Shown piece after piece: positions 1,517 to 64,000 of a stretch of DNA of 64,000 bases. This stretch comes from Amphibalanus amphitrite. Its lineage: Eukaryota. Every line of letters begins with the position of its first letter. Within the stretch, counting starts at the first letter, position 1. A program made the translations under genes and the position numbers. The stretch is taken from positions 416,406-480,405 of the forward strand of contig NW_024881729.1 of assembly GCF_019059575.1 (NCBI RefSeq), written 5' to 3'. A model generated the notes under the pieces. The model saw nothing but the letters and a program-made list of their open reading frames with translations, did no database searches and was not told the DNA's origin.

Positions 1517-1629
1517 ATGGCCCGCGGCCTCTCCGAGTGGCTGCTGACGCTGCTGGCAGTGCTGCTGTTCTGCGGCAGCGCCTCCGCCACAAAGATCTTC
1601 TACATCCACTGGAACACCACCAACCCCAT
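1517..1629 (+). CDS. EFNA: ephrin exon 1: start codon, signal peptide (MARGLSEWLLTLLAVLLFCGSASA) and first residues of the receptor-binding domain (KIFYIHWNTTNP); GTGAGT donor at 1630
   Basis: ATG followed by a hydrophobic signal peptide. The YxHWNttNP motif matches the ephrin receptor-binding-domain N-terminus (vertebrate ...VYWNSSNP...). The phase-2 end joins exon 2 in frame (NP-I-FQISN). Confidence 0.6.
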
Positions 1630-17169: not shown

Positions 17170-19600
17170 CTGTCTCAGATACAGATACAGATACAGATAT
17201 ATTCGAGCCAGATCCACACATTGGAGTGGCTTTTCACAAGCTCACGTCATACGATGGGGGATATCATGGGGAGGGGGAGTATATCGAGCACACATCCACG
17301 CATTCACAAATCACAGTACGTATGCTCAACATAGGCACACACAATCTAAGCATCTTGTTCAGGCATTGCTCGCAGCACCTTCATAGCGTTAGCTCTGAAA
17401 GATGACACCATTGGGTCAACTTTGAGCTGGTTGAGTCGTGCCACTCCCCTGTAGCACAGCCGCCGTCGGCCTGCCTCCGTCCGAATGGACGGGAGCGTGA
17501 GCAAATTGGCGCGCCTTGTGTCGTGCTGGTGGCGATTGCTCGCCTGGCGCCCTATGGTGCTGCTCAGTCGCTCAGGCTGGGAAGACACGATAGCTCGCTG
17601 TACAGCGCACACGGTGTGGTAGTCAATTAGTCGCTTGGCAGATAACCATTTCAATTCGCGCATTACAGATGCCACACTGTCGCGACGCCGCTTGTTCGAC
17701 ACGACCCGGGCACAGAAGTTCAGTACTTTTTGAAGCCGCCGAAGTTGCGTCTCTCCGCACGATCCGTAGACGGACGAACAGTATCGCAATACCGAGATCA
17801 CTAGTGACTGGACGATGCACTTCAAGGCAGACCTCGGCACAACATGACGTGCATGCATCAGTGCTATGAGCATACCAGTACATTTCTGTGTAACGCTGTC
17901 GACATGCGGCTCAAAACTCAAATGACGGTCCATCGTCACTCCGAGGTTCCTCACCGTTCTAGACTCAGTGATTGTGGTCGCACAGAAATCCACAGTAACA
18001 GGGGCCAAACCGCGGAGCATTGCTGGCGTTCCTATCACGAGCATCTTTGTTTTTCCTGCGTTCAGTTTCATGCCGTTATGGCAAAACCACTGAAAAACGC
18101 AGGAGAGCGCGTGCTCCATGCGTGCGATCAGCTGATCTACATCACATTTTCTGCCAGTAACCATGAGCTGCGTGTCGTCCGCAAATTGAACGACGGTGAC
18201 GTCATCAGGCACACACAAGCACAGGTCATTTGAGAAGAGCATATAAAGAACGCAGCTGAGCGCTCCGCCTTGATACACACCGATCTCGTTGGGTTTGCTA
18301 TCTGACAGGAGACTCGCACCATCTGCACCCCTCATCTGCACCTGCTGCGAATGATGCGCTAAATAGTTACGGAACCACTGCACATCTACACCGTATACCG
18401 ACAACTTTTCCAGTAGTTTTGCGTGTGGGACTACATCAAAACATTTTGATAGATCTAATAGTACCAAAATACAGATTTGTCCATTGTCCATGGCTTGAAG
18501 AGCCATGTCCGTTACAGTATGCAGAGCAGTTTCGGTGGATCGCTGTTTGCGATAACCGTGTTGAGCATCGGAAAGCAAGTGGTTATCCTCTAGATAGCTT
18601 GACAGCTGGCCCTGAACAATACGCTCCACCAGCTTCATAATCGCTGGTAGAATAGATATGGGACGCGTATCAGACGGTTTCACAGACGTCTTCCCCTTCG
18701 GAATAGGGGTCACTAGTGCGTGCTTCCAATCACGCGGCACGACACCAGTAGCCAGGCTGGAATTCACTACGTTTAGCAGTACGTGGCCCATCCCGGAGAA
18801 GAAAGACTGAAGCATCAGTACGCTAATACCATCCTTGCCGGTTGATTTCGACGGCTTCATCAGCAAAAGAGTGGCATACAGTGTGTCATAATCAGTAGTG
18901 CGCACCACGAACGCGGCGGCCGGCACACGAGGTAGACGCATGGGCACACGCATCGTAGCCGCAGGCACACTAGCAGCCGTGGCCGGTCCGATCGTGACGT
19001 AGAAGTCGTTGAGAGCGTTCGGAGTAATTCTCGGCACTTCACAGGTCTGCTGCTTTTAGCCGATAACAGGTCGCAGCGCACGCCACAGCCCGCCTCTGTC
19101 GCCGAGCCGGATCGCTCTAGTATAGCGCTCTCGGCTCTCATTCCGCACGGCGGCACGGTACAGCCGGTTCACCCGCTTGTATTCAGCGCGGTCGTCCCCA
19201 GCTAAGGCCGCGCGGCGGCTCTGCAACAGCTGCTGCGTTTCGGCAGACACGGCTGGCGCTGTCAACTGCCGGTCACGCACACGTTTGAGAGGTGCAACAG
19301 TGTCGAGCCGGCCGATGAACGTATCGCGGAAGGTCGAGGCGACTCCCCTCCCCTCCAATCCCATCTCGAACGTCATCAGATCCCCTGACGTCATGAGATC
19401 TCCTGACGTCATCATGAACCCGTGACGCCGCTCATGGATGGCCATCTGGTCGCGGACCAATTAGTCTGTGCAGGCCGATTCCCTGCCGCTCGTTGTCTGC
19501 GCTGCTGCAGTCAGCCGACCGGCCGCCGCGTTTGGCTGCGGTATTAATCGTGATGACTGAAGGTCGAGGCGACTCCCCTCCCCTCCAATCCCATCCCCTC
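17170..19600 (-). mobile_element. 5-prime-truncated CR1/L2-like LINE copy containing a reverse-transcriptase ORF. A frameshift lies near 19040. The 3-prime end abuts a (CAGATA)n tail at 17170-17200.
   Basis: ORF 17346-19037 on the minus strand has reverse-transcriptase motifs (PKGKTSVKPSDTRPISILPAIMKLVERIV, YRKQRST, FADDTQLM) and a CR1-like C-terminus. The upstream minus-strand ORF 19056-19460 resembles the endonuclease-to-RT linker. Located in ephrin intron 1. Confidence 0.75.
17346..19037 (-). CDS. LINE ORF2 fragment (reverse-transcriptase domain plus C-terminal region), 563 aa
   Basis: Reverse-transcriptase motifs 1-7, including FADD. Confidence 0.75.
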   Translation of the reverse strand: MPRITPNALNDFYVTIGPATAASVPAATMRVPMRLPRVPAAAFVVRTTDYDTLYATLLLMKPSKSTGKDGISVLMLQSFFSGMGHVLLNVVNSSLATGVVPRDWKHALVTPIPKGKTSVKPSDTRPISILPAIMKLVERIVQGQLSSYLEDNHLLSDAQHGYRKQRSTETALHTVTDMALQAMDNGQICILVLLDLSKCFDVVPHAKLLEKLSVYGVDVQWFRNYLAHHSQQVQMRGADGASLLSDSKPNEIGVYQGGALSCVLYMLFSNDLCLCVPDDVTVVQFADDTQLMVTGRKCDVDQLIARMEHALSCVFQWFCHNGMKLNAGKTKMLVIGTPAMLRGLAPVTVDFCATTITESRTVRNLGVTMDRHLSFEPHVDSVTQKCTGMLIALMHARHVVPRSALKCIVQSLVISVLRYCSSVYGSCGETQLRRLQKVLNFCARVVSNKRRRDSVASVMRELKWLSAKRLIDYHTVCAVQRAIVSSQPERLSSTIGRQASNRHQHDTRRANLLTLPSIRTEAGRRRLCYRGVARLNQLKVDPMVSSFRANAMKVLRAMPEQDA

Positions 19601-28500: not shown

Positions 28501-29644
28501 ACCGGTCGCCGGCGCCGCGCGCCGACCGTGCTCACAGTGACGTGAGCTCCTCTGGGGAATGCCGATCGGCCGATCACAGCTCAGCGTGTTATTGATCATC
28601 ATATCACGGCGCATTACGGGCCGTGTAAATAGGTCAATCTGAGCCCAGTGCCCACCATCCCGGAATAGCTCGACCGCCTCGGCCAGTCTCCCGACCGGCG
28701 CTCGGCGCGGCTTATATACAGGTGCGCTCCGTCCTGTAGCTGCCGACACATGGTACCGACACGGAGCGCCGATCGCCGACCGCCGGGCGCCGACCCGATT
28801 CCGCTGACTCACGAAATGTCCGGGTCACGTGCTTATCTGCCAATCTGCGCCGATGATACACCGCTAGGTGGCGCCGGGAGCTGCTCGGAGTGGCCGCCTC
28901 CTGCAGCGACCCACCCCGGCCGCGGCCCACGGCACGGAGCCGAGACAGAGAGGTGACTTCAGAGCGCAGCGCCGCCCGACTGGGTGGGAGGCCTGGAATT
29001 CAGAGATACGGGGCACCCGCCGAACAGCAGCTGCTCTGTCATAGGGCGGCGCCGCCGGAGCTCAGACGCAGTTAATCTCTCCTACGCAGTCTCGTGTTTT
29101 AGGGAACGTGTTCATCCCATTGTTACGAAGAACTAAACAGTATCGGGCTGTCTTTTCTCGTCTGTCTCCCATTCACATTACTGCACGTTACTGTTCCTGA
29201 TCTCTTTCCACGCCATCTTATCCCAACTCATTCCACCCATCCCATACCCTCCCATCCCATCTCATCCCATAATAACTCGGTGCTCGCCGTGCCGATCGTT
29301 CATCTCCAAATGGTGTGTTCCCTGATGAGCGATGCCTGCGCCGCGAGCGGTTTGTAGCCAGCCTTGGACCTGAACGTCGTCCGTCGTCGTCCCATTTGCC
29401 ACTGCCGAGCTGCCGTCAACTGAAGTCGCCGCGGTCATTCACTTTCATTGAACTCTACCTCTCCCATCAATGTGTGGGAGGCTCTTTATTTTCGCTGCCT
29501 CTTCGTGTCATCAAGCGGCCAACAGCGCTGCAGCGATTGCATGCTTCAAATGTCATCACATTAGCCTTGTTGCATGAGAGTAATCGGCATCTGCTGCGGA
29601 TATTTGACCGATGTGCAGGCATGCAGGCGAGCTTCACTGGCGAG

Positions 29645-32600
29645 AGTCTGGAGGGACCCACCTTCACGTGGTGGACTCCGTGGGGCTCGTCCCCGCCCCC
29701 GCCGTGGAGAGCGGCGGGGGAAGCCAATCGGGTCCCAGCCCGCCCTCTCGGGGCCGGGCGCCGGCGGCCGACGCTCCACCGCGCCGTCGTCCCTACACCA
29801 TCTGCACGTCGACCCGCACACTTGGTGCACGCTCAGCGGGCCGGTGCCGCGCGAGGGCATGCCGCCTGGAGGCTGTCCGCAGCGGCGCCGGCCTGCGCTG
29901 AATGAGTGAGTCGGCGCCCCCCGCCGCTAGTGCCGGCGGCGGGGGTGCGGCGGCGTCCGCCGGAAGGAGCTCCCGGGGTCGAAGCAGGAGAGCTAAGAAC
30001 CGCCGATACCGCGCCAACCTCAAGACTCGAAGCCGCCTGCAGATCGCCTGCTGGAACGCCGAGGGACTACATCGCAAGTTGACAGAGCTCCAAGGCTGGC
30101 TATCGGAGTCGAAAATCGACGTCATCGCGGTTCAAGAGGCACAGTTCAGCGCCTCATCTCTCACCGAGATCCCGGGGTTCCAGACGGCGGCCGTCCGCCG
30201 AAGGGCACGGGGGCGGAGGAACTCAGGCCCGGCCAAGGGGGGCGACGTAGCGATCTACGTCCGCAAGGGTCTCAACTTTGACAAGCTGGAGACCGCCCCC
30301 CTGGCCATGGCGGACACGACTACCGAGTGGTGCGGCATCCGCCTGTACCTCAGCAACTCCGCCCTGAAGAGCAGCAGTCCTGCGCCAACCCTGGACATCC
30401 ACAATCTCTACCGGCCGCCAATCCGACCTGGCGAAGAAGACCAGAGGTCCGACTACTTCGACCCGTCGGCCCTCCCCACCAACCCAGACTCCCTACTGTT
30501 GGGGGACTGGAATGCCCACCACCCGGCCTGGGATCGGCACTGCATGGAGGAGGACGAGACGGGGCGTCGTCTGGCGGACTGGATGACACAAACCGGTGTC
30601 ACCACCCTCAACGACGGCTCCCACACCAGGACCAGCTACAGGGGACAACCCAGCACTCCAGACGCCGTCTTCTGCCACCGTGACCTGGCCCGCCGCTGCA
30701 CGTGGGCGGTGGGCACGGACATCGGCAGCGACCACCTGCCGATGGTCACCACCGTCACGATGAGCGGACACCGCCCAAGACGGATACGCAAGACGCGCTG
30801 GGCCTTTCACAAGGCAAACTGGACTGGCTACGAGGACGACTGCGAGTCAACTCTCGCGGGGCTCCCGGAGGACGTCACGGCAGAGCGACTCAACGAGCTC
30901 TTCACTGCCGCGCTGCTGAAGTGCAGCGTGCTGCATGTCCCCCGCGGGGCCAGATCCGACCCCAAGCCCTGGGCCATGGACCCTGAACTGGAGGAGGCTG
31001 TGCGCGACCGCCGTAGCGCGAGGGCAGCACTGGACGCCGCTCCCGGATCGACAGATGCCAGAGACCGCTGGGTGGAGGCGAAACGCCGCGCAGCGAAGAT
31101 CGAGGAGGAGGCGAAGGCGCGCTCTTTCAGGAACTTCGCGACCGAGGAGCTGAACCGGCCTGCCAACATCGGCAGAGTTCACAAGATTCTCCGGAAGATG
31201 GAGGGGGCGGAACAAGCTCCGCCCGGCCAAGCGCTCGGGGACCACGGACGTCGCGCCGTGGAGGACCGGACCAAGGCCGCGGCGTTCGCCAAACAGTACG
31301 CCAGTGTCAGCCGACAGGTCCGGAATAAGCTCCAAGACCGCAAGACGAAGTCCGAGCTGACAAGGCTCCGCGCCGAGCCCTGCGTCTGCTCCGATGCCCG
31401 TACCGAGGCCTGTTCCTTGTTTACGCCTCAGGAACTGGACACGCAGCTACGCAACATGAAGTGTGGGAAGGCGCCGGGCCCAGACGACATCTGCGCCGAG
31501 CACCTGCGCCACCTGGGCCCGGGTGCCAAGACCACTCTCCTCCGACTGCTGAACCTGTCCTGGTCCACAGGCCAGGTACCGTCTGCGTGGCGCCGGGCGA
31601 CCATCATCCCAGTTCCCAAAGCTGGGAAGGACCCAAAGATGATCGCCAGCCATAGGCCGATTGCGCTCACTAGCCACCTGGCGAAGCTGGCCGAGCGCCT
31701 AATCGCCGCCCGCCTCAACCATCTGGTAGAGCGCGATGGACTCGTGCCGCCCGAACAGGTCGGCTTCCGACGAGGCAGATCGGCTGAAGAGAACCTGGCA
31801 AGACTGGTGCAGCGGGTCCAAGATGGCTGGAACAAGCCGAAACCGAGAGGACGACCGGAAGAGGGCAAGTCCGCGGAAAAGTTTGTACTCCTCGCCTTCG
31901 ACTTCTCACGGGCGTATGATGTCATCGATCACAAGATGCTCCGCCTCAAGCTCCTCCGCCTGGGGGTGCCCAAGTGCATGTCCGCATGGATATGGGCGTT
32001 CCTCCGGGACAGGAGAGCTGCGGTCGAGGTCAACGGCGCCCGAGGAGGCGAGCGCCCGTTCCGGGCCGGACTCCCGCAAGGCAGTGTTCTGGCCCCAACG
32101 CTTTACACGCTGTGGTCGGCCGACCTGATCACGGCGCTCAAGACCGTGCCAGGCACAGACATCTTCATGTATGCCGACGACACGGCGACGCTCAGCAGCG
32201 GCGCCTCCATCGAAGAGGCCGGCCGCCGAGCCCAGCGAGCTGCGGACATCATCGCCAGCTGGGCATCAAGATGGAAGATGCGGGTCGCCGGCGAGAAAAC
32301 ACAGGCCCTCGTCCTATCCCAATGGGCCCGCGACGCGTCGAGCTTGAGCATCAAGGTGTCTGGCGCCGTGGTGACTGCCGGCCCCTCCCTCAGACTCCTG
32401 GGCGTGACCTTTGACCGCCTCCTTCACTTCGGCGCCCACTGTGCCGAGCTGCGCAAGAAGGTCCGCCCCCGTGTCGCCCAGCTGCGACGCATGACCGGGA
32501 GGAGCTGGGGACTGGGCGAACGCCAATTGAGGTCGGTGGCCAACGGGTACATCAGGGGGGCCTTAGAGTACGCGGCGGGGGCGTGGATGCCTGCGGCCTC

Positions 32601-33972
32601 CGCTTCACACCTGGAGCTGGTCGACAGGGAGCTGCGGGCGGCGGCCCGGGTGATAACCGGCTGCCCCGCCTCAACACCCGCCTTCGCCCTGCTGTCGGAG
32701 GCGGGCATGCCCGCCGCATGCACGCGCCGCTCGGTGGTGGCAGCCAGGCTACTGGGCCTGGCGATGTCCCTGCCAGAGGGCGACCCTCTCCGAGCCCTGG
32801 CGGAGTCGACCCCGCCGCGCCGCCTCAAGACGACGACCGGATGGAGGGACCGCGGTCGCGAGGCCCTAGCACGGGTCTGCCGCGGCGGCGCGCCGCTGAC
32901 CTTTGAAGCGCGGCTAGCAACCGCCGGGCCGCCGTGGCGCGATGTCCCCGGTGTGACCATCGTCCTGGAGGTGGGTCCCGGGGGACGCCGCGACTGCCAC
33001 CCGGACACAAGACGAGAGGCAGCGGAGAGCCGTCTGGCGGAGCTTCCGGCCGAGGCGACCTGGATATGGTCAGACGGCTCCGCCGCGGATGGGGTGCTGA
33101 ATGGAGGAGGAGGAGCCACCATCATTTCCCCGAACGGCGACATCAGGGAGGTGCGTGTCGCGGCAGGCGCCCTCTGCTCCAGCACCCGCGCGGAGCTATT
33201 CGCCCTGAGAGCGGCGCTGGAGGAGCTCCTGAACATGGATGGCCGTGACACCTCCCTTCCGACTGTCGTCTGTACCGACTCGATGGCGGCGCTGGCCCTC
33301 CTGCGGAGCGGCCCGGCGGCCCAGAGGACTCCGCTGGCCGCAGATATATGGAGGCTGCTGGCCGCGCTCACCGAGGGGGGCCAGCCAGTAACCATGCAGT
33401 GGGTCCCTGCACACTGCGGGCTCCCCGGTAATGAGCGAGCGGACGCCCTCGCCCGCGAGGCCAGCGCCCTACCCCAACATGACACTCCGATCGACGGTGG
33501 CACGATATGCAAGGCCGTTGCACGAGACGCTGCGCGCGCCTGGCAGCGGAGCTGGCCGGACGGCTGGTACCGGGCGATATGGGCCGACCGCCGTCCCGGC
33601 CCCGTCCTGGAGGCCGACCGTGCCGTCGCGGTTGATATTCACCAGCTCCGAGCAGGACACTGGAGCGGCTCGGCGCAGTACCTGCACCGCATCGGCCGCC
33701 GTCCCGAGGCCGACTGCCCGCAGTGCAATGACATGGGCTGCCCTGCTGCACGATGCCGCGTCTGCCGCGAGGAGGCGGACACTCCACGACACGTCCTGCT
33801 CCGATGCCCGGCGCTGGCGGGACGCCGCCTGCGGCGCCTGGGTAATATTCACCTGGAAGCGTCTATGGCAAGGGACGACGGCGCGGTGGCGGCCTTGGCC
33901 GCCGGCTACCGCGCCCAATTGAGCCTCATCGGCTACGCCCCCTAGGGGGCTGGAGGGAACAACGACGACGAC
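29645..33972 (+). mobile_element. full-length non-LTR retrotransposon (LINE of the RNase-H-containing I/R1/LOA-type group) with one long ORF. It is flanked by a 17-bp target-site duplication, cgagcttcactggcgag (29628-29644 and 33972-33988), and has a 3-prime (ACG)n tail.
   Basis: Identical 17-mer on both sides. ORF 29902-33945 encodes apurinic endonuclease, reverse transcriptase, RNase H and a C-terminal Cys-rich finger with no stops. Same orientation as ephrin, inside intron 1. Confidence 0.8.
29902..33945 (+). CDS. LINE ORF2-type polyprotein, 1347 aa, apparently intact: apurinic-type endonuclease (N-terminus, ...DHLPM), reverse transcriptase (PDDICAEHLRHLG...YADDTA), RNase H (TWIWSDGSA...TDSMAALA...VPAHCGLPGNERAD), C-terminal CCHC-like finger
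   Basis: Domain motifs read from the translation; uninterrupted frame. Confidence 0.85.
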   Translation: MSESAPPAASAGGGGAAASAGRSSRGRSRRAKNRRYRANLKTRSRLQIACWNAEGLHRKLTELQGWLSESKIDVIAVQEAQFSASSLTEIPGFQTAAVRRRARGRRNSGPAKGGDVAIYVRKGLNFDKLETAPLAMADTTTEWCGIRLYLSNSALKSSSPAPTLDIHNLYRPPIRPGEEDQRSDYFDPSALPTNPDSLLLGDWNAHHPAWDRHCMEEDETGRRLADWMTQTGVTTLNDGSHTRTSYRGQPSTPDAVFCHRDLARRCTWAVGTDIGSDHLPMVTTVTMSGHRPRRIRKTRWAFHKANWTGYEDDCESTLAGLPEDVTAERLNELFTAALLKCSVLHVPRGARSDPKPWAMDPELEEAVRDRRSARAALDAAPGSTDARDRWVEAKRRAAKIEEEAKARSFRNFATEELNRPANIGRVHKILRKMEGAEQAPPGQALGDHGRRAVEDRTKAAAFAKQYASVSRQVRNKLQDRKTKSELTRLRAEPCVCSDARTEACSLFTPQELDTQLRNMKCGKAPGPDDICAEHLRHLGPGAKTTLLRLLNLSWSTGQVPSAWRRATIIPVPKAGKDPKMIASHRPIALTSHLAKLAERLIAARLNHLVERDGLVPPEQVGFRRGRSAEENLARLVQRVQDGWNKPKPRGRPEEGKSAEKFVLLAFDFSRAYDVIDHKMLRLKLLRLGVPKCMSAWIWAFLRDRRAAVEVNGARGGERPFRAGLPQGSVLAPTLYTLWSADLITALKTVPGTDIFMYADDTATLSSGASIEEAGRRAQRAADIIASWASRWKMRVAGEKTQALVLSQWARDASSLSIKVSGAVVTAGPSLRLLGVTFDRLLHFGAHCAELRKKVRPRVAQLRRMTGRSWGLGERQLRSVANGYIRGALEYAAGAWMPAASASHLELVDRELRAAARVITGCPASTPAFALLSEAGMPAACTRRSVVAARLLGLAMSLPEGDPLRALAESTPPRRLKTTTGWRDRGREALARVCRGGAPLTFEARLATAGPPWRDVPGVTIVLEVGPGGRRDCHPDTRREAAESRLAELPAEATWIWSDGSAADGVLNGGGGATIISPNGDIREVRVAAGALCSSTRAELFALRAALEELLNMDGRDTSLPTVVCTDSMAALALLRSGPAAQRTPLAADIWRLLAALTEGGQPVTMQWVPAHCGLPGNERADALAREASALPQHDTPIDGGTICKAVARDAARAWQRSWPDGWYRAIWADRRPGPVLEADRAVAVDIHQLRAGHWSGSAQYLHRIGRRPEADCPQCNDMGCPAARCRVCREEADTPRHVLLRCPALAGRRLRRLGNIHLEASMARDDGAVAALAAGYRAQLSLIGYAP

Positions 33973-34576
33973 GAGCTTCACTGGCGAGGTTTTGCAGAGA
34001 TTACACGCTAGCGCCGTCGTATACTCGGTTCCGGCGATACTTCAAGGCCCTTACTCTCACTGAGTTCGGCGGTCAGCGAACAGATGGATCATTTATTTTC
34101 GGTGGTGGTTAATATTCAGAAAGTTACACGAGAACAACAGCCCAGCCAACAACAAGTACATTATTCAAGGTATTTCCTAATTTCTGCCGCGGCTCAGGTC
34201 GGCGAGTCGGCTATAGTCCAGTCGGATCAGCGCCGAGTGTCGCCCCGTTTTGGCCTCGCGTCACCGCCAAGCCGATTTAGCGGGCTCGGCTGGACGTTTC
34301 TTGCTTAGGGCGAAGTCCCGTTACCATTTTTCGTAACTGGAGAGCCGACCAGCCCACCTGAGTGGCCTTGGACGGAATGGCGACGCCTGCAGCTGCTCAA
34401 GTCGGCGAGTCTGCAGCTCCGACTGATGTGGCCGTTCTCATATTACCCGCTAATATCTGGCTGACCTCTCCGCTGTCTCTGTAATGTATTCCTAAGAATC
34501 CTAACTCATCTCGAACGGCTCGTCCGGCCGTTTGCAGACATTCCGCGACACAGTCTCAGGCCGTCTCGGCTCCCGC

Positions 34577-38478: not shown

Positions 38479-38620
38479 ATTCCAGATCAGCAACACAGAC
38501 CACATCATCGACGTCAACAAGGGCAACAACCTGTTCGAGTACGACCAGGTGACCATCATCTGTCCGAGCTACAGCGAATGGACCAAGGAGGAGGATACGG
38601 AGAAATACATCATATATAAC
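38479..38620 (+). CDS. EFNA: ephrin exon 2 (receptor-binding domain: IFQISNTDHIIDVNKGNNLFEYDQVTIICPSYSEWTKEEDTEKYIIYN)
   Basis: ttttcag acceptor and GTGAGT donor. Matches the ephrin-A5 region [34 protein letters not shown], including the first conserved Cys. Confidence 0.85.
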
Positions 38621-40236: not shown

Positions 40237-41683
40237 GCAGACGATGAGTGGCAAACCGACGGATGGCGGACGGCACCCTCACCACCACACACGAACAGAC
40301 AAACGGGCGAATCCTTCACCAACGACAGCCGGACGGACGGTCGAACATACGGGCGTGCAGACGATGCAGGACAGATGGACGGACAGACCGTGTGCACGAC
40401 GCCTGAACGGCGGCGGTATAAAACGCTCCAAACATTTATCTCGAACCTGGAGTCAGTTTTGGTTTTGATACACCAGTGTGGGATCGCCCACAGCGTACGA
40501 CAGGTCTGGTCCGTGTTGCCACTCGTGTTACCGGTCACCGGCGGCTGCTCGTTTGATGGAGAGCCTCGTCCCGGCTGTCGTGGCCCGGTGCCGCCGTCAG
40601 CGCCGCCACCATGATCCGACATCAGTTGGCATCAGCGGCGGCAGATCACGCTGATCAGAGCCGCTCGCTTGGACCGCCGGTGACAGTATCTTAGTGTCAC
40701 CCTCCCCTCTGGTGTATAGGACAGTCGGCGGCAGCAGGACATTGCGGAGCCGCCGCAGCTGCGACCGTCCCGGAGAGAGAGCAGCAGCCTCTCCAGGTTA
40801 ATCCGTTCAGACGGCTGACTGTCGCCGCCAGGGACGCCGCCCATTCAGGTGGAGGGTGCGCCGCGCTTTGTCGTCCCGCGACCCTGTCGTCGGCGGCGGA
40901 GTCTGCTCCTCTCTGTGGTGCCCAACTGTAGGCGACGGTCCGCCGGCTCCCTATTCAGTGTCCGTCGTCAGCTCACAGCGAACTCGCGGCCCCGGTGGCT
41001 CAGAGGACGCAGCTCAGACGCTCCTGTCAGGAGCGGGGACTGCGGACCTGTCAGGACTCGGGACTCAGGACCGGTGGGATAAGCCGATCAAACTCGATGG
41101 CGCCGGAACGTCAGGGCTCGGGTGGAGCTGGTAGACTGGTTTGAAAACGGTGGTGACAAAGGATGTTACTAAATATGTGTCTCCTTGTGAGTACCCGATA
41201 AAGACGGCCACTGCTAGTGAATTCGGATCCATTGCAACTCCATTGGTCCGTGGGTTAAGGATTTGACACGGTGCTGAAGGAGTCTCTGCGCTGTTGACCT
41301 CTGAGCTCATCATCCCACCGTTTACTGTCCGTGGTGCGGTCGCCTACCGATAACCCCTCCTTCGGCGGTCGCGCAGTGATGGCTGCGGTCCCATTGGTCC
41401 CAGCCGACCATCACCTAGGACCCTCTGTGGCGCTCTAAATGCCGGTGGTCGAGGTTATCCGGTGACCAGCCGAAACGTTCCCTGTGAACTCTGCCGAAGT
41501 GTCGTCCCACTGTCCGTTTGCATCACATGCACATTTACATCATTTGCGCACTTGTAGGCCCAAAATGCTGATCTAGTAGTCTGCCTCGAGGGCATTTTTC
41601 CCAACAATGACCTGTGACCTTTGACATGTTAGCTTTGACGGCTGACCTCTGACCTGTGACCTAACCGTCGCGTCTGTTTCCAG

Positions 41684-41852
41684 GTGTCCAAAGAGGAGTA
41701 CGACACATGTCGGATCACCAACCCGAACCCGCGCATCATCGCCGTCTGCGACAAGCCGTACAAGCTGATGTTCTTCACCATCACCTTCCGGTCATTCACA
41801 CCTCAGCCGGGAGGGCTGGAGTTCCGGCCCGGCCAGGACTACTTCTTCATCT
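41684..41852 (+). CDS. EFNA: ephrin exon 3 (VSKEEYDTCRITNPNPRIIAVCDKPYKLMFFTITFRSFTPQPGGLEFRPGQDYFFI-)
   Basis: tgtttccag acceptor and GTAAGT donor. FTP...EFRPGxxYFxIS is the ephrin-A signature (human [20 protein letters not shown]). Second and third conserved Cys present. Confidence 0.9.
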
Positions 41853-57243: not shown

Positions 57244-58722
57244 ATGCCTCCATTCCATGCGAGGTACTCTGGTCCCGAACTCGAGCCTGTAAGTATCACC
57301 CCAGAGGCAGTCATCAACAAGCTTCAGGGTCTCAAGCCCGCCAGCTCCCCGGGCCCCGACGGCATCCACCCACGAATCCTCTCTGAGACTGCCGAGTCTA
57401 TTGCCCCTTCTCTGGCACGGCTGTTCAACATGTCCTTAGCGTCAGGTGAGGTTCCATCCGAATGGAAGCTGGGCGAAGTTGTCCCGATATACAAGAAGGG
57501 GAACAAACAGCTGCCGACAAATTACAGGCCCGTCAGTTTGACTGCTGTTCCATGCAAAATACTGGAGTCCATCATTCGGGACCTCATTATGAACCATATG
57601 GTCTCTACTGGCCAGCTCCACAACGCTCAGCATGGTTTCCGTCCAAAAAGATCGTGCGCAACTCAGCTGCTAGCTACTCTAGAGGACTGGAGCAGGGCGA
57701 TCGAGAGGGGCGAGACAGTGGACGCTATCTATTTGGACTTTTCTAAGGCATTCGACACTGTGCCCCACCAGAGACTCCTCCACAAACTCAGGGCATATGG
57801 GATCGGTGGACACCTGCTCAGATGGATAACAAGTTTCCTGTGCTATAGAAAACAACGAGTTGTCCTGAACGGTTCATCTTCTGACTGGGCCACAGTCAGT
57901 AGCGGCGTTCCTCAGGGCTCGGTCCTGGGACCCCTTCTGTTCGTCCTATTCGTCAACGATCTTCCAGGCCTTATGCAAGGCGGGATACAGATGTTCGCGG
58001 ACGACACGAAGATTTACCGTCCTGTTCAGAACCCCTCTGATGCGGCTCTGCTCCAGGCGGACATCTCCACGGCTGTCGACTGGTCCAGCAAGTGGTGCCT
58101 CAGTTTCAACTCCCAAAAGTGCAAGGTTATCCACGTTGGAAAGCGCATTCCATATGAGTCATATGTCATTGGAGACTACCAGCTTGCTGAGGTTGAAGTT
58201 GAGCGTGATCTAGGCGTCCAAATCGATCAGGACCTCAAGTTTCGTGAACAAGCCGCTGCAGCGGTATCCAGAGCCTCCCAGATGCTCGCGGTGATTCACA
58301 AGTCCTTCGAACGCATCGACGCCACCACGCTACCGCTTCTGTATAAGACCCTGGTACGACCGCACCTCGAGTACTGCAACATCGTATGGGGCCCCTTCAA
58401 TCGCGCTGACCAGCAAAAGGTGGAGCGTGTCCAGAGACGAGCAACGAAGATGATCCCATCACTGAGGAGCCTACCATATGACCAACGACTACGCTCGCTG
58501 AAACTCCCGTCTCTCTATTATCGAAGGCGCCGCGGCGACATGATTATGACGTACCAACTTTTTCATGGGGGTGTTGACCTCGATCCTGAGTCATTCTTTG
58601 AGTTGGCTGACTCTACTACAAGAGGACACCCCTGGAAGCTGTTGAAGCCGAGAGCGTCTTCCCGATCGAGGCGAAATGCGTACAGCGTCCGGGTCGTCAA
58701 TGACTGGAATGGGCCTTGGTAA
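57244..58722 (+). CDS. LINE reverse-transcriptase ORF fragment (492 aa)
   Basis: See above. Confidence 0.8.
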   Translation: MPPFHARYSGPELEPVSITPEAVINKLQGLKPASSPGPDGIHPRILSETAESIAPSLARLFNMSLASGEVPSEWKLGEVVPIYKKGNKQLPTNYRPVSLTAVPCKILESIIRDLIMNHMVSTGQLHNAQHGFRPKRSCATQLLATLEDWSRAIERGETVDAIYLDFSKAFDTVPHQRLLHKLRAYGIGGHLLRWITSFLCYRKQRVVLNGSSSDWATVSSGVPQGSVLGPLLFVLFVNDLPGLMQGGIQMFADDTKIYRPVQNPSDAALLQADISTAVDWSSKWCLSFNSQKCKVIHVGKRIPYESYVIGDYQLAEVEVERDLGVQIDQDLKFREQAAAAVSRASQMLAVIHKSFERIDATTLPLLYKTLVRPHLEYCNIVWGPFNRADQQKVERVQRRATKMIPSLRSLPYDQRLRSLKLPSLYYRRRRGDMIMTYQLFHGGVDLDPESFFELADSTTRGHPWKLLKPRASSRSRRNAYSVRVVNDWNGPW

Positions 58723-59172
58723 CAACTGGATTTCCATTACGTCATGGGTGATGATGTCACACCACGGGTGACGTTTCACTGCTGCTGCTGCTGTCCACGG
58801 AGGGCAGCGTTTGTGAGTGGAAAACAGTAGCAACATTGTAAATGAAGGCAGTATTGGCGCTTATGCTACATATGAAATTTATAACAACATATTGATATTG
58901 GTGAATGTTTATTTTTGTTACTTTTCATAAACCCTCCATTTGGGCCTTGGTAACAACTGGATTTCCATTACGTCATGGGTGATGATGTCACACCACGGGT
59001 GACGTTTCACTGCTGCTGCTGCTGTCCACGGAGGGCAGCGTTTGTGAGTGGAAAACAGTAGCAACATTGTAAATGAAGGCAGTATTGGCGCTTATGCTAC
59101 ATATGAAATTTATAACAACATAAAAAAAATTGATATTAGTGAATGTTTATTTTTGTTACTTTTCATAAACCC
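57244..59172 (+). mobile_element. 5-prime-truncated CR1/L2-like LINE copy (reverse-transcriptase ORF 57244-58722). Its 3-prime UTR consists of two roughly 230-bp tandem units (58714-58943, 58944-59172).
   Basis: Reverse-transcriptase motifs (FRPKRSCATQL, YLDFSKAFDTVPH, FADDTKIY) and the characteristic CR1-type C-terminus (…YYRRRRGDMIMTYQLFHGGVDLDPESFFELADSTTRGHPWKLLKPRASSRSRRNAYSVRVVNDWN). The 230-bp duplication was read directly. Confidence 0.8.
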
Positions 59173-59784
59173 TCCATTTCAGGGTCTGCATGCAAAATTT
59201 CTGTTATTTTAGAGTCAAGCTATTGTACTAAGGGATTTATTTTGGCAATTTAGTCATTTGTTAGGTTATAAGGCTGCAGAAACTTTCAGTTGAGGTTGGT
59301 ATCCACTATCCAGTTGCAGCTATAATTAATTGTGTCATATTTTGTATCATTTTCTGAACATGTAAACACCTACCTATATGAATTCAAATTTTGTGATTGT
59401 AGAAAAGCAGTTACCCTCACATTGCAGCGGGGATTAGAACAATTAACCACACTTGTTATACAAAAAGCCTGTTTGCCATCAATTTTGGGAATCCAAATTG
59501 GGTATTGGTCAGGTAGATGTAGCACAAGCTGCCCGATGCACGAGAATGGGTCTTTCTAACCAAACCTTACCTAACCTGACCTACAACCTACAGCCTTAAA
59601 CCTAAAATTTACAACCTACGACCTAGTCCTACGGTATGGCATATCACAACAGCTTGTGCTACGTCTGCTACCATGACCCAACTTTGTGCCAATTCATACC
59701 AACTTGGGATGACAGTCACTGCAGATGTGTGCTGACCATGCAGGTCTTTGTTACAATTGCAATTCTATTGTGTTACAGGTTCGG

Positions 59785-60845
59785 CGTTCTACAGCTGCGA
59801 CCCGCCATGGCTGGGCCACCGCGGCGGCATCACCTTCAGGGTGGACCTGCCCGTGGCCACCCGCCGGTCGGACCCGCCTGCAGTCCGCAGGGAAGCTGCC
59901 CTGCGAGCCATTGCAGAGCTCCCGCACCCGGACGTCACTATCTGGTCGGACGGCTCGGCTCGCGGCGGACGGAACAGGGCGGCGCAGGCGCTGATCCAGT
60001 TCCACCACCTCAACAGAGAAGAGACCGTGCGCGCTCCTGCAGGGGCGGTCTGCTCCAGCCTAAGAGCAGAACTGACCGCCATGCGCGAGGCGTTCGCGGC
60101 TGTGGCCGGCCTGGAGGACGGGGAGTTGGCATCGACCAAGTCGGTCCGCCTCCTCACCGACTCAAGGTCTGGGCTCCAACTACTCGGCCGCGGCCCAGCT
60201 AACCAGACCATGGCCCTGGCCGCCGAGGTGTGGAGGCTGCTGAGTGCTGAGCACCCTCGCCGAGAACGGCACCGAGACGGTGCTCCAGTGGGTGCCAGGC
60301 CATGCCGGGCTGGACGGCAACGAAACCGCCGACCGCCTGGCTGGCGAGGCCACGGCGGGCGACCAAGACAGCGCACCGATCGACCTGTCGAGTGCGCGAG
60401 CCGCCGTCACGCGCCATGTCCGGGAGCTGTCGCGACAGAGGGCAACCGCTGCCCACCCGCACCCGGACCCCACGCCTGGCCACGACTCCCTGGCGCGCTG
60501 GGGTCGGTGACGCTGTCCCAGCTGAGGACCGGCACATCACCGCTGACCCGTGACACGCTCCACAAGATTGGCCCGGAAGCCGACGACGAATGCCCCGCGT
60601 GCGGGGAGCCCGACAGCGCGGCGCACCTACTGACCGATTGTCCGGCCTATGAGGCGGCCCGCCGCCGCCGCTCGGGTGCCGACCCTCGCCTGGTCGACGT
60701 CCTCGGCGGCCCGGCGACGAAGGTCGTCACCTTCATCGAGGATGTTGGGCGGACCGAGCCGCCGCTCGACCCGCCTGCGCCGCCGCCCCCCTGAGCGGGT
60801 TGGCGATGGGATGCAGAAGAAGAAGAAGAAGCAACTGCCAGCGCG
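59785..60845 (+). mobile_element. 5-prime-truncated LINE fragment (RNase H plus C-terminal zinc-finger region, with two frameshifts) from a family related to the intact element at 29645-33972. Ends in a (GAA)n tail.
   Basis: …DVTIWSDGSA…TDSRSGLQLL…VPGHAGLDGNETAD…CPACGEPDSAAHLLTDCP, compared with the intact element's RNase H and zinc finger. The tail is agaagaagaagaagaag. Confidence 0.8.
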
Positions 60846-62864
60846 CCACGGCGGCGAAGCCGAGTTCCGCCGCTGGACCGCCCGCGCAATGGCCAGCACA
60901 GACAAGAAACAACCGAATCACAACACCTACAATTACGTTATTGTTATGGTATTGACATTGTTACAATTAACCCTGCTCTTTCGAGCGTGGATGCACGCTA
61001 AAATTGTCGCATAATTCCATGCAGCTTCCACCCTTCTGCAATACAAAGTTTGAATACAAAGTAGTCTTACAATAGGTTTAGAACTTATGTGCAGATTGTC
61101 GATGCTGGTTGACTTGATGATTGGAATTGTGTTTATCTGTTTTATCTGTTTTGACTTAAATATATGGCCATGGACTATGGCCTACCTTGGGAAGTGTCTA
61201 TGATTTCAACAAAACATTTTTCATCAGGATACGCTGCAGGGTACATAGTACATACGTAGTGAAAATTTTGGGCATGTATGGGTGCGCATGTGGAGATGTA
61301 GACTGCGAATGAGACGGACTACGACGGTTTTTGAACCAATTAAATCTGATTGACAACATAATGTAGGACTAAAAACTGACTGTCAGAAGAATATTCACAG
61401 AATATTCACTTCACCCGGTACAACGAAAAGGGAAAGTCAGGGAACAGGGGCAGGGTACATCTCGAAGATCAATCAAATTGCAGGTGCCGATTGGTTATGG
61501 ATCATCGTAGCTCAATGTACTGCCTTGTGCTGCTTTATTGATTGAAATTGCATCCAGCTTGTATTGAAAGAAGTCATTATGGAAGATTTTAAAAAGGTTT
61601 TTGAATAATTTAAATACTTTGAATTTATATTTCTGCAGAATTATATACCCGTATCATTCTTTTAATGTCAATATTTGTATATTTTCTAGCATTTAAGGAA
61701 ATAGTGGCCTCAAGTTTTTAGAAAATATCTGATTTTGCTCTCTGGGCCACTGCAGATCCCTAAAAAGTTAGGAGCCGTCTTCATTATTTAATGTATAAAA
61801 CCAAATAAATTATCACTGCTCAAAAGTGGAAGAAATGACAAATGAAAAAAAGTTTTCCTACAGCGTTGCAATCCAGATTTCAAGATAGTGATGGGCGCAC
61901 TAGAAAGCAAGTAAAAGTACTCCACAAGGTAAAAGTAAGGAACAAGAATATCCTTATACTGTTTCAGAATTCGGTAACAAACATTTTTTGTGTGTTTTAA
62001 ATACCCGGACAAATCGATTCCAGAATCAGTCTTGATGATATTATATGGTTTTTGTATGGTGTTGGTGGTACTCGAATGACCAAAGTCAGTACATGTCCAT
62101 CACCTTTCGATATTTCCGTGGTGCTCGCTCCCATTTCATAGCTGCTCACGGTGTTTTGTGCTGACGTCATATGGTGCTGCTCCACTAGCGCCACCATACG
62201 GCGTCAGCTGGCGAATTATCCAGTTAATACCAGAGCCCCTCCATTTCAGAGGGTCTGCATGCAAAATTTCTGTTATTTTTTAGAGTCAAGCTATTGTACT
62301 AAGGGATTTATTTTGGCAATTTAGTCATTTGTTAGGTTATAAGGCTGCAGAAACTTTTAGTTGAGGTTGGTATCCATTATCCAGTTGCAGCTATAATCGT
62401 GTCATATTTTGTATCATTTTCTGAACATGTAAACACCTACCTATATGAATTCAAATTTTGTGATTGTAGAAAAGCAGTTACCCTCACATTGCAGCGGGGA
62501 TTAGAACAATTAACCACACTTGTTATACAAAAAGCCTGTTTGCCATCAATTTTGGGAATCCAAATTGGGTATTGGTAAGGTAGATGTAGCACAAGCTGCC
62601 CGATGCACGAGAATGGGTCTTTCTAACCAAACCTTACCTAACCTGACCTACAACCTACAGCCTTAAACCTAAAATTTACAACCTACGACCTAGTCCTACG
62701 GTATGGCATATCACAACAGCTTGTGCTACGTCTGCTAGTGCTACCATGACCCAACTTTGTGCCAATTCATACCAACTTGGGATGACAGTCACTGCAGATG
62801 ACAGATGTGTGCTGACCATGCAGGTCTTTGTTACAATTGCAATTCTATTGTGTTACAGGTTCGG

Positions 62865-63925
62865 CGTTCTACAGCTGCGACCCGCCATGGCTGGGCCACC
62901 GCAGCGGCATCACCTTCAGGGTGGACCTGCCCGTGGCCACCCGCCGGTCGGACCCGCCTGCAGTCCGCAGGGAAGCTGCCCTGCGAGCCATTGCAGAGCT
63001 CCCGCACCCGGACGTCACTATCTGGTCGGACGGCTCGGCTCGCGGCGGACGGAACAGGGCGGCGCAGGCGCTGATCCAGTTCCACCACCTCAACAGAGAA
63101 GAGACCGTGCGCGCTCCTGCAGGGGCGGTCTGCTCCAGCCTAAGAGCAGAACTGACCGCCATGCGCGAGGCGTTCGCGGCTGTGGCCGGCCTGGAGGACG
63201 GGGAGTTGGCATCGACCAAGTCGGTCCGCCTCCTCACCGACTCAAGGTCTGGGCTCCAACTACTTGGCCGCGGCCCAGCTAACCAGACCATGGCCCTGGC
63301 CGCCGAGGTGTGGAGGCTGCTGAGTGCTGAGCACCCTCACCGAGAACGGCACCGAGACGGTGCTCCAGTGGGTGCCAGGCCATGCCGGGCTGGACGGCAA
63401 CGAAACCGCCGACCTCCTGGCTGGCGAGGCCACGGCGGGCGACCAAGACAGCGCACCGATCGACCTGTCGAGTGCGCGGGCCGCCGTCACGCGCCATGTC
63501 CGGGAGCTGTCGCGACAGAGGGCAACCGCTGCCCACCCGCACCCGGACCCCACGCCTGGCCACGACTCCCTGGCGCGCTGGGGTCGGTGACGCTGTCCCA
63601 GCTGAGGACCGGCACATCACCGCTGACCCGTGACACGCTCCACAAGATTGGCCCGGAAGCCGACGACGAATGCCCCGCGTGCGGGGAGCCCGACCGCGCG
63701 GCGCACCTACTGACCGATTGTCCGGCCTATGAGGCGGCCCGCCGCCGCCGCTGGGGTGTCGACCCTCGCCTGGTCGACGTCCTCGGCGGCCCGGCGACGA
63801 AGGTCGTCACCTTCATCGAGGATGTTGGGCGGACCGAGCCGCCGCTCGACCCGCCTGCGCCGCCGCCCCCCTGAGCGGGTTGGCAATGGGATGCAGAAGA
63901 AGAAGAAGAAGCAACTGCCAGCGCG
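62865..63925 (+). mobile_element. second copy of the same 5-prime-truncated LINE fragment, carrying the same two frameshifts (part of the 3.08-kb tandem duplication)
   Basis: Near-identical to 59785-60845, with a few substitutions. Confidence 0.8.
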
Positions 63926-64000
63926 CCACGGCGGCGAAGCCGAGTTCCGCCGCTGGACCGCCCGCGCAATGGCCAGCACAGACAAGAGACAACCGAATCA

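Follow-up and report, generated by a model that had tools for sequence, protein, structure and literature searches.

The first intron of an ephrin gene of the barnacle Amphibalanus amphitrite contains a non-LTR retrotransposon of 4.33 kb, which occupies positions 29644-33974 on the forward strand of the window, the whole 64,000-nucleotide stretch of DNA that was analysed. Taken together, the evidence is very probably best explained by a young, autonomous, APE-type and Ingi-like LINE that carries an HDV-like ribozyme at its 5' end and was inserted by target priming.

Organisation of the element and of its host gene

The ends of the element were set by alignment to four other genomic copies and coincide with the positions of a target-site duplication. 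Two exact instances of the sequence CGAGCTTCACTGGCGAG, and no others, are present in the window, one at 29628-29644 and one at 33972-33988, and the perfect 17-bp duplication proposed from the sequence alone is thus confirmed. G29644 is both the last base of the 5' duplication copy and the first retained base of the element. Because the last CGA of the tail of this copy overlaps the duplication, its true length is 14-17 bp. The layout is as follows.

29628-29644, forward strand: 5' copy of the target-site duplication, exact 17-mer
29644-29736, forward strand: predicted HDV-like self-cleaving ribozyme, from covariation in related families
29737-29901, forward strand: remaining 5' UTR, with a GC-rich stem closing at the start codon (computed fold)
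29902-33945, forward strand: single LINE ORF, 1347 aa, uninterrupted
33946-33961, forward strand: short 3' UTR, GGGGCTGGAGGGAACA
33962-33974, forward strand: triplet-repeat tail (ACG)4A, from the sequence and the alignment of copies
33972-33988, forward strand: 3' copy of the target-site duplication, exact 17-mer

The 5' UTR comprises only 257 nt, is structured, and no protein domain was found in it. An in-frame stop codon, TGA (29899-29901), lies directly 5' of the ATG, and in relatives with 51-76% protein identity a TAA, TAG or TGA also abuts the ATG, with complementary GC-rich arms flanking it. At the other end of the element, a GGAGGGA(A)CA-like motif is found 5' of the tail in related families. 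An upstream ORF of 196 aa (29315-29905) was not accepted as an ORF1: its start lies outside the element and is not conserved, it passes through the predicted ribozyme, and the surrounding sequence is GC-rich, so that long ORFs are to be expected there.

The ephrin exons were located by tblastn, with an ephrin-B2 query and then with homologues.

1517-1629, forward strand: ephrin exon 1, MARGLSEWLL...HWNTTNP, with the donor gtgagt at 1630
38479-38620, forward strand: ephrin exon 2, IFQISNTDHIIDVNKGNNLFEYDQVTIICP...YIIYN
41678-41851, forward strand: ephrin exon 3, found with ephrin fragments carrying Pfam PF00812
from 43400, forward strand: ephrin exon 4, found with ephrin fragments carrying Pfam PF00812

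Since exons 1 and 2 bracket 29644-33974, the LINE lies in intron 1 (1630-38478, 36.8 kb) on the same strand as the gene; the exon coordinates bear out the sense orientation that had been suggested for it.

Two other sequences in the window, at 59802-60677 and 62882-63757, had been taken for 5'-truncated copies of the same family. This identification fails: they match only residues 1010-1314 of the LINE protein, at 34% identity, no similarity to the LINE was found at the DNA level, and they are the two copies of a local duplication, 99-100% identical and about 3.07 kb apart. As judged from these comparisons they are members of a different family.

Domains and catalytic residues

Three Pfam domains, all with matches exceeding the curated cut-offs, and a C-terminal cysteine/histidine motif are encoded by the ORF.

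30052-30735, forward strand: APE endonuclease, Pfam Exo_endo_phos, aa 51-278
31615-32361, forward strand: reverse transcriptase (RT), Pfam RVT_1, aa 572-820
33055-33465, forward strand: RNase H, Pfam RNase_H, aa 1052-1188
33754-33807, forward strand: CCHC motif, CX2CX8HX4C, formed by C1285, C1288, H1297 and C1302

Both Exo_endo_phos and Exo_endo_phos_2 match the endonuclease region (aa 51-281), and the RVT_1 match has E = 7e-29. The CCHC motif has no match in Pfam and is invariant in 16 full-length relatives. All residues that are constant across these 16 relatives are present in the ephrin-intron copy: N52, E79, D202, N204, H206, D254, D277 and H278 in the endonuclease, D667, A758-D759-D760 and K799 in the RT, and D1058, E1098, D1126, H1171 and D1181 in the RNase H. 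The RT active site reads Y757-ADD, Y757 itself not being invariant among the relatives. With its endonuclease, its YADD RT and the signs of target-primed insertion, the element is an APE-type non-LTR retrotransposon, and the reading of it as an intact LINE, its one ORF encoding endonuclease, RT, RNase H and zinc-binding motif, stands. The RNase H is C-terminal to the RT and has a DEDD active site (D1058, E1098, D1126, D1181), which is the arrangement of the I superfamily, the RNase-H-bearing LINEs. No 2A-like peptide (NPGP motif) is present in the 1347 residues, and the element ends in (ACG)n and has no poly(A) tail. In a sequence search of the PDB the sole RT relatives with solved structures were human L1 ORF2p and R2 (E about 1e-13); the other matches were bacterial and retroviral RNase H, of no use for clade assignment.

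Placement among the LINE clades

The element is most likely an Ingi-like member of the I superfamily, as suggested by its RT sequence and its organisation. The RT was compared with mollusc Nimb, Ingi, CR1, L2, RTE-X and Tx1 references, from a part of the alignment of PMC10294476, and with a fungal protein. In a neighbour-joining tree the LINE falls in a clade of 133 tips with one Ingi-labelled reference, outside Nimb, CR1/L2, the fungal element, RTE-X and Tx1. Bootstrap support for the Ingi side is 57% against Nimb and 78% against CR1/L2 (57-87% per outgroup), falling to 39% against all four labelled outgroups together (Nimb, CR1/L2, the fungal protein and RTE-X). In the trimmed RT-domain alignment the Ingi reference is the nearest labelled RT, at 32.5% identity, compared with 31.6% for CR1, 30.3-30.5% for three Nimb sequences and 26.9% for a probable fourth. 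The closest relatives of the Ingi reference are also among the best 150 of 1.84 billion proteins when the LINE is the query, and Nimb-like full-length proteins score far below Ingi-like ones. The phylogeny called for by the sequence-only reading places the RT with an Ingi-labelled reference, at weak support. The poorly catalogued clade which that reading suggested is not established: the RT groups weakly with Ingi-labelled sequences of a published RTclass1-based set, so that a named I-superfamily clade is its probable place.

The domain organisation is consistent with this placement. [quoted passage not shown] Metazoan families named Ingi (Repbase/RTclass1; mollusc clusters, PMC10294476) have the same order of APE, RT and RNase H, and the mollusc reference shares its tree clade with the barnacle LINE at moderate support. 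A triplet repeat, (GAA)7, is likewise the terminus of P0277 (locus L011), which is closely related to that reference.

It is quite possible that the proper place of the element is not Ingi, and is either one of the other I-superfamily clades (Nimb, I, LOA, R1) or a sister clade that has no name. The bootstrap values are weak and the tree contains no I, R1, Jockey, Outcast or LOA references. The triplet tail and the missing 2A peptide are unlike the trypanosome Ingi elements, and the Ingi-labelled mollusc relatives score higher in their C-terminal half against Baggins1 (LOA) than against L1Tc. For the LINE itself this half, compared with those of L1Tc and Baggins1 in Fig. S1 of PMC3774820, gives 81 bits against L1Tc and 67 bits against Baggins1, which is too close to decide. 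Against such a placement stand the identity to the Ingi reference and the far lower scores of the Nimb-like proteins. Nimb itself fits poorly: its references cluster with proteins (P0060-P0064) that are 25-26% identical to the LINE ORF and lie outside its clade, and Limi, a Nimb element of Locusta, possesses an ORF1 carrying three CCHC knuckles (PMC3391268), and the LINE lacks an ORF1. The Jockey clade, the name of which is used in the NCBI annotation and the members of which have ORF1 and ORF2 and no RNase H, was rejected on the RNase H and the single ORF. The labels 'jockey', 'BS' and 'R1' were apparently carried over by similarity to named reference proteins and do not classify the element.

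Related copies and recent activity

At least four more copies, with 99.5-99.8% DNA identity, are present at other loci of the public assembly, three of them with intact 1347-aa ORFs (3-5 differences). All five copies have their own, differing duplications of 10-17 bp, and one is 5'-truncated, at nucleotide 340 of the element. Because at least four copies are this similar and each has its own duplication, the family has been active, and has amplified, very recently; it is probably still active. Other young copies thus exist, and both the (ACG)n tail and the recent target-primed insertion that had been put forward are upheld. The ephrin-intron copy itself was inserted by target priming, leaving the 14-17 bp duplication. 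The best protein match to the ORF, 99% identical, is annotated in A. amphitrite; an exact copy of the window protein was not found in the assembly index.

The tail varies in length, the other copies having 4-7 ACG units, and related families end in (AAC)n, a more distant one in (GAA)n. All five insertion targets begin with CGA(G) or ACGAC, matching the tail unit, so that at least 3 nt are common to every insertion site and the tail. This microhomology had not featured in the sequence-only reading.

Relative to the consensus of the five copies, the ephrin-intron copy differs at 6 of 4331 nt, three changes being synonymous and three giving R57H, F169L and T657S. Its own competence is plausible, as far as its sequence indicates, and is not assured, because the family's first G, which closes stem P1 of the predicted ribozyme at its cleavage site, is missing and three amino acids have changed. 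That the family is active and this copy a dead end, which lost the first G of P1 at insertion and the RNA of which is neither processed nor mobilised, is possible if somewhat doubtful. The majority of LINE insertions are inactive, this copy alone has A (29643) for the conserved first G of P1, and the three substitutions are private or rare. None of them, however, is at a family-invariant position, F169L also occurs in another intact copy, and the ORF is intact with all catalytic residues present. R2 ribozymes, moreover, are functional when P1 has 6 bp and when its top is mismatched (PMC3774820).

A predicted HDV-like ribozyme at the 5' end

The first 93 nt of the element (29644-29736) are predicted to fold into an HDV-like nested double pseudoknot.

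29644-29649 with 29673-29678, forward strand: P1, predicted pairing
29650-29652, forward strand: J1/2, 3 nt
29653-29659 with 29730-29736, forward strand: P2, predicted pairing
29660-29662 with 29670-29672, forward strand: P3, predicted pairing
29663-29669, forward strand: L3, UUCACGU, 7 nt
C29665 with G29680, forward strand: P1.1, invariant pair
about 29681-29720, forward strand: P4 region, two hairpins by folding
29721-29729, forward strand: J4/2, with the invariant C29724 as candidate catalytic base

HDV-like ribozymes are defined by a P1 of 6-7 bp, a P2 of at least 5 bp, a P3 of 3 bp, a P1.1 of 1-2 bp and a variable P4 (PMC4908430, PMC3774820), and the predicted fold is a nested double pseudoknot of this kind. 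The family consensus has an extra G 5' of 29644, kept by seven of the eight sequences in the comparison, which pairs with C29679, the base after P1', to give a 7-bp P1. Most families have two hairpins between P1' and J4/2 in place of a single P4. A search for the motif on both strands returned 29644-29736 as its sole match in the window and none in 20 shuffles. The sequence-only reading had passed over this fold.

Covariation was tested in 7-8 related families (51-76% protein identity) against 500 shuffles and slid controls. In the predicted stems 92.8-97.3% of cells are paired, compared with 37-52% in the slid controls, and eight pairs have changed on both sides in a compensatory manner. Four of these are in P1, which is 94.6% paired, and four in P2, which is 98.2% paired. 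None of the 500 shuffles reached the observed percentage paired, the number of doubly changed cells or the covariation score, and the count of pairs with double changes was reached in 0 and 3 of 500; the exceptions among the measures were 3 of 500 on one and 39-79 of 500 on another. P3 is 100% paired (invariant or G.U/A-U) and the C-G pair of P1.1 is invariant, a second pair forming in L007 only; being invariant, these two stems are uninformative for or against the fold. The C at nucleotide 81 (29724), the A three bases on, and U1, C3 and G6 of L3 are invariant in seven families.

Five independent loci have full-length insertions whose 5' ends fall on the predicted cleavage site, the first base of P1, with 0-10 extra bases, and at L009 a clean 11-bp duplication abuts P1. 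These starts fit the 5' end of a cleaved RNA, short of proof. The predicted ribozyme could free the LINE RNA from a host transcript.

It is decidedly unlikely that the conserved fold is not catalytic and acts as an internal promoter, a protein-binding site or a translation element, the RNA 5' end then arising by initiation of RNA polymerase II at nucleotide 1. A defined 5' end would also be expected from an internal promoter that starts there. Capped L1 RNAs give an extra G at 5' junctions, as reverse transcription of the cap would, and two of the copies have such a G. Rfam, searched with the whole element and, at E up to 10, with stretches of 121 and 96 nt from two family members, gave no HDV-type match, all that it returned being chance matches below threshold; the HDV-type covariance models cannot encode pseudoknots and represent narrow families. 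In L1Tc the first 77 nt are both promoter and ribozyme, roles that are hard to separate by sequence (PMC3383444). Against a non-catalytic role, the topology of P1, P2 and P3 is that of HDV, with a 7-nt L3, a 3-nt J1/2, an invariant C followed by (C/G)(A/G)A in J4/2 and a first P1 pair that is G.U or G-C. Compensatory changes at the RNA level are not needed by a promoter, and the extra G has a pairing partner, the base after P1', and is itself conserved.

Proposed life cycle and comparison with known systems

Under the favoured explanation, that of a target-primed LINE with a 5' ribozyme, the element would be transcribed, possibly as a passenger in host RNA, for instance the ephrin pre-mRNA, and its first 93 nt would fold and cleave the transcript where P1 begins, setting the 5' end. 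The uncapped RNA would then be translated into a single polyprotein, the endonuclease of which would nick the bottom strand of the target. Pairing of the freed 3' end (...TCG) with the RNA's (ACG)n tail would prime cDNA synthesis, and the 5' end would be joined through short microhomologies, giving variable 5' junctions.

The I factor of Drosophila, like the barnacle LINE, has an RNase H that follows the RT, a CCHC at the C-terminus and a triplet tail, (TAA)n, but has a separate ORF1. In L1Tc/ingi of trypanosomatids an HDV-like ribozyme in the first bases cuts at nucleotide 1. The barnacle LINE resembles these elements in several ways: APE, RT, RNase H and a C-terminal Cys/His motif are all encoded by one long ORF, an ORF1 is lacking, the 5' end has a ribozyme (in the barnacle LINE a predicted one) and the duplication measures about 12 bp or more (PMC3185411, PMC4035085, PMC3708506). 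Compared with L1Tc it is about 25% identical from YADD to the RNase H, has no 2A peptide, has (ACG)n in place of poly(A) and a CCHC in place of inserted C2H2 fingers, and is found in a metazoan, with two hairpins in the P4 region of its predicted ribozyme. In L011, the one Ingi-like relative examined for such a fold, only relaxed and unconvincing candidates were found. R2, R4/Dong, RTE and Baggins (LOA) belong to other LINE clades; their 5' HDV-like ribozymes free them from co-transcripts, and their 5' junctions are variable and microhomology-mediated (PMC3774820, PMC5786205), as is proposed for the barnacle LINE. R2 and R4 have a restriction-like endonuclease and are site-specific, whereas the barnacle insertions are scattered, their sites having only CGA in common with the tail.

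The element exemplifies well a kind of LINE that was already known and does not represent a new one, and the general understanding of LINEs is unchanged by it. Barnacles, almost without curated transposon biology, gain a well-defined and probably still active family, for which consensus, boundaries, tail and target preference have been determined. To the LINE clades with a 5' HDV-like ribozyme it adds a crustacean Ingi-like lineage, in which the ribozyme is predicted; among the papers searched, none linked HDV-like ribozymes with barnacles. The seven diverged versions of the predicted ribozyme form a natural covariation series, and the match between tail and target in five of five insertions illustrates how a tail other than poly(A) can guide priming. 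Public annotations as 'jockey', 'BS' or 'R1', sometimes fused with host genes, are misleading.

A more far-reaching proposal, which we consider unlikely as a whole, is of a promoterless LINE lineage, diverse in barnacles, that lives by read-through from host genes. If true, the 5' HDV-like ribozyme would excise the LINE from intronic co-transcripts, the uncapped RNA would owe its translation to the conserved stop-ATG in its GC-rich stem, and base pairing between the nicked target and the family-specific tail (ACG, AAC or GAA) would decide where integration occurs. The intronic CPEB3 ribozyme reportedly lowers the expression of its host gene by cutting the pre-mRNA; in the same proposal the sense ribozyme in ephrin intron 1 would cleave the nascent transcript likewise, and carriers of the insertion could have reduced ephrin expression.

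Structure and coding capacity of the element

The main element, a LINE at 29644-33974, lies within intron 1 of an ephrin gene (1630-38478, 36.8 kb) and on the same strand. The ephrin exons were identified through homologues in which Pfam PF00812 is present, and their positions bear out the sense-orientation insertion proposed in the sequence-only reading.

Exons of the ephrin gene
1517-1629, exon 1, MARGLSEWLL...IHWNTTNP, donor gtgagt
38479-38620, exon 2, IFQISNTDHIIDVNKGNNLFEYDQVTIICP...YIIYN, donor gtgagt
41678-41851, exon 3
From 43400, exon 4

Features of the main element
29628-29644 and 33972-33988, target-site duplication, 17-mer CGAGCTTCACTGGCGAG, at these two sites only in the window
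5' UTR of 257 nt, starting GAGUCUGGAGGGACCCACCUUCACGUGGUGGACUC
29902..33945 (+), ORF of 1347 residues with no interruption
aa 51-281, apurinic-type endonuclease
aa 572-820, reverse transcriptase (RT)
aa 1052-1188, RNase H
C1285, C1288, H1297 and C1302, C-terminal CX2CX8HX4C motif
3' UTR of 16 nt, directly after the stop codon
33962-33974, tail (ACG)4A, after the 3' UTR
Pre-insertion (empty) site, GCAGGCGAGCTTCACTGGCGAGGTTTTGC

The intact four-domain ORF that had been read from the sequence is upheld, as are the perfect 17-bp duplication and the (ACG)n tail. The endonuclease, RT and RNase H domains are matched in Pfam well over the curated cut-offs. The C-terminal motif had no match in the Pfam search and is kept in all 16 full-length relatives compared (30-64% identity). 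The same relatives share invariant residues in the endonuclease (N52, E79, D202, N204, H206, D254, D277 and H278), the RT (D667, the YADD motif at A758-D759-D760, and K799) and the RNase H (D1058, E1098, D1126, H1171 and D1181).

[quoted passage not shown]

Near-identical copies and target sites

Among database proteins the one nearest to the ORF (99% identity) comes from the annotation of assembly GCA_009805615.1 of the barnacle Amphibalanus amphitrite. The 90% cluster of this protein holds two distinct 1347-residue proteins from three loci, which differ from the window ORF by 3-5 residues, together with several partial sequences; a database look-up found no record of the exact window-copy protein. 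Four loci (L001-L004) were retrieved for comparison at the DNA level. Over 29644-33974 they are 99.5-99.8% identical to the window sequence, so young copies do exist, and the similarity stops at those two positions, which fixes the ends of the element independently of the duplication. Each is flanked by its own duplication of 10, 12, 15 or 15 bp, and L001 is truncated at element nucleotide 340. The separate duplications and the truncated copy are hallmarks of target-primed reverse transcription. Relative to the five-copy consensus the window copy differs at 6 of 4331 positions, three of them synonymous and the others giving R57H, F169L and T657S, with the invariant residues untouched.

The triplet tail of the main element matches its own target sites. 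Targets start with CGA(G) or ACGAC in all five window-family insertions, where about 1 in 64 is expected by chance for each tail-target match. The primer left by a bottom-strand nick would therefore end in ...TCG-3', which allows it to pair with the RNA tail. We infer that the logic of poly(A)/T-rich priming in L1 carries over to this triplet tail. An (ACG)n tail is found in the window family and its 76% relative, (AAC)n in three families at 51-58% identity, an ACCACCA terminus in one contig and (GAA)7 in a more distant Ingi-like relative.

A predicted HDV-like ribozyme at the 5' end

An HDV topology was first fitted to the 5' UTR by eye.

Parts of the predicted ribozyme
29644-29649 with 29673-29678, P1
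29650-29652, J1/2, 3 nt
29653-29659 with 29730-29736, P2
29660-29662 with 29670-29672, P3
29663-29669, L3, 7 nt
About 29681-29720, P4 hairpin region
29721-29729, J4/2, single-stranded, with C(C/G)(A/G)A

Six loci whose proteins show 51-76% identity (L005-L010) were compared; their sources are contigs of marine metagenomes and a second family of A. amphitrite. All share an HDV-like arrangement directly upstream of the ORF, with compensatory changes. Among the families P1 varies as GAGUCU/GGACUC, GUGUCU/GGACGC, CCGUCC/GGACGG and CACCCU/GGGGUG, and P2 as GGGACCC/GGGUCCC, GAGUCCC/GGGACUC, GGACUCC/GGAGUCC, GGGAUCC/GGAUCCC and GAGAGCC/GGCUCUC. When the seven sequences were aligned with MAFFT, pairing held in 97.3% of cells, and 8 of the 16 pairs had changed on both sides. 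The observed values were unmatched in 500 shuffles on four of five measures, the count of further pair types being matched by 39; when partners were slid, pairing fell to 37-52%. A descriptor scan of both window strands returned the ribozyme site as its single match, with none in 20 shuffles. Rfam searches, including those with short stretches, gave no match to any HDV-type family, which counts against membership of the HDV-like class.

Extending the alignment by one base upstream gives a family P1 of 7 bp, the first base being G and its partner after the 3' strand of P1 being U in four sequences and C in three. The window copy alone has an A at this position (29643), and the element's first G was therefore lost or replaced at insertion. 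The P1.1 pair C29665-G29680 is invariant; a second P1.1 pair is confined to L007, which differs on both sides. Between the 3' strand of P1 and J4/2, folding gives two hairpins in all versions but the shortest, L010 (69 nt), which has one. An HDV-like fold at the 5' end, which the covariation supports, is likely, and self-cleavage in vivo is somewhat more probable than not.

Full-length insertions start at the predicted cleavage site. L009 does so exactly, with an 11-bp duplication (CTGCCAGGGCG) adjoining P1. L003 and L004 have one extra G ahead of that start, which is the P1 G, and L002 has 10 extra bases. Variable 5' junctions have been reported where cleavage falls at an element's own end (PMC4908430, PMC3774820, PMC5786205, PMC3185411, PMC4035085). 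An internal promoter could set the 5' end instead of ribozyme cleavage.

The extra bases of L002 (2723-2752; GAGTCTGTCG), between the target-site duplication and the element start, repeat the first 7 bases of the element, a pattern that template slippage or microhomology in 5' joining would produce.

Directly 5' of the ORF start codon is an in-frame stop (TGA, TAA or TAG) in six related families (window 29820-29904, L005, L006, L007, L009 and L010; the start is ATG, or ATA in L007), and complementary GC-rich arms surround the start site in all six. If the codon were merely constrained to T-purine-purine, all six would have a stop with a probability of about 18%, so the arrangement is no more than suggestive. 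It may serve to control translation of a ribozyme-processed RNA that has no cap.

Other LINE fragments in the window

Several LINE remnants are present in ephrin intron 1. The sequences at 59.8 and 62.9 kb, previously taken as related 5'-truncated copies, match just aa 1010-1314 of the main element at 34% identity and without DNA similarity; they are rejected as members of the window family. They are copies of each other and lie in a duplication (59207-61000 and 62278-64000; 98-100% identical, about 3.07 kb apart) that is the 3' part of a LINE from a different family; it may have arisen in tandem or be an artefact of assembly. Identity to the main-element ORF is 27-28% for the RT fragments at 17.7-18.9 kb (-) and 57.3-58.5 kb (+).

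ORFs of other LINE fragments
17346-19037 (-), RT-bearing ORF, 563 aa, RVT_1 E = 5e-32, 27% identical to the main element, antisense in ephrin intron 1
57244-58722 (+), RT ORF, 492 aa, E = 8e-34, nearest labelled reference a mollusc CR1 element (distance 0.78)
59748-60794 and 62828-63874, 348-aa ORFs of the duplication, weak RNase H and zf-RVT matches

The ORF at 57244-58722 is probably a CR1-like LINE fragment in its own right, so that the RNase H fragment at 59.7 kb would not be its 3' continuation. Two fully identical units of a 182-nt direct repeat lie at 58710-58891 and 58941-59122 (231 nt start to start).

Placement among LINE clades

With aa 500-1347 as query, an exhaustive HMMER search found 100,847 representative proteins at E <= 1e-3 and 4,899 at E <= 1e-30. 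The best 150 are end-to-end RT-RNase H relatives (30-64% identity), all from metagenome contigs. The labelled RT references were exclusively mollusc-element domains classified with RTclass1 (PMC10294476 supplement). Identity over the trimmed RT domain was 32.5% to Ingi, 31.6% to CR1, 30.3-30.5% to three Nimb elements and 26.9% to a probable fourth, and lower to L2, RTE-X and Tx1. The nearest neighbours of the Ingi reference (P0277 and others) fall among the best 150 matches; the Nimb references group with P0060-P0064, proteins just 25-26% identical to the main-element ORF. In a neighbour-joining tree the element joins the Ingi reference before CR1/L2, Nimb, a fungal element, RTE-X and Tx1, with modest bootstrap values of 57% against Nimb, 78% against CR1/L2 and 39% against all four labelled outgroups together (Nimb, CR1/L2, the fungal protein and RTE-X). 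For its C-terminal half, L1Tc gives a score of 81 bits and Baggins1 one of 67 bits. Solved structures were of no help in placing it in a clade.

The single-ORF layout with RNase H and the predicted 5' ribozyme fit Ingi, although, in contrast to trypanosome members, the element is without a 2A peptide and its tail is not poly(A). On balance the comparisons lean towards an Ingi-like element within the I superfamily. The names 'jockey', 'BS' and 'R1' given to these proteins at NCBI appear to be similarity-derived labels and are at odds with the RNase H domain. One 1683-aa relative (P0050, 35% identity) has an additional OTU cysteine-protease domain (PF02338), and the A. amphitrite gene model P0044, which joins immunoglobulin I-set domains to a LINE RT, is probably an annotation chimera.

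Each component of the main element has precedent. The element is genuine and very young, retains its coding capacity and belongs to a recently active LINE family of a barnacle.
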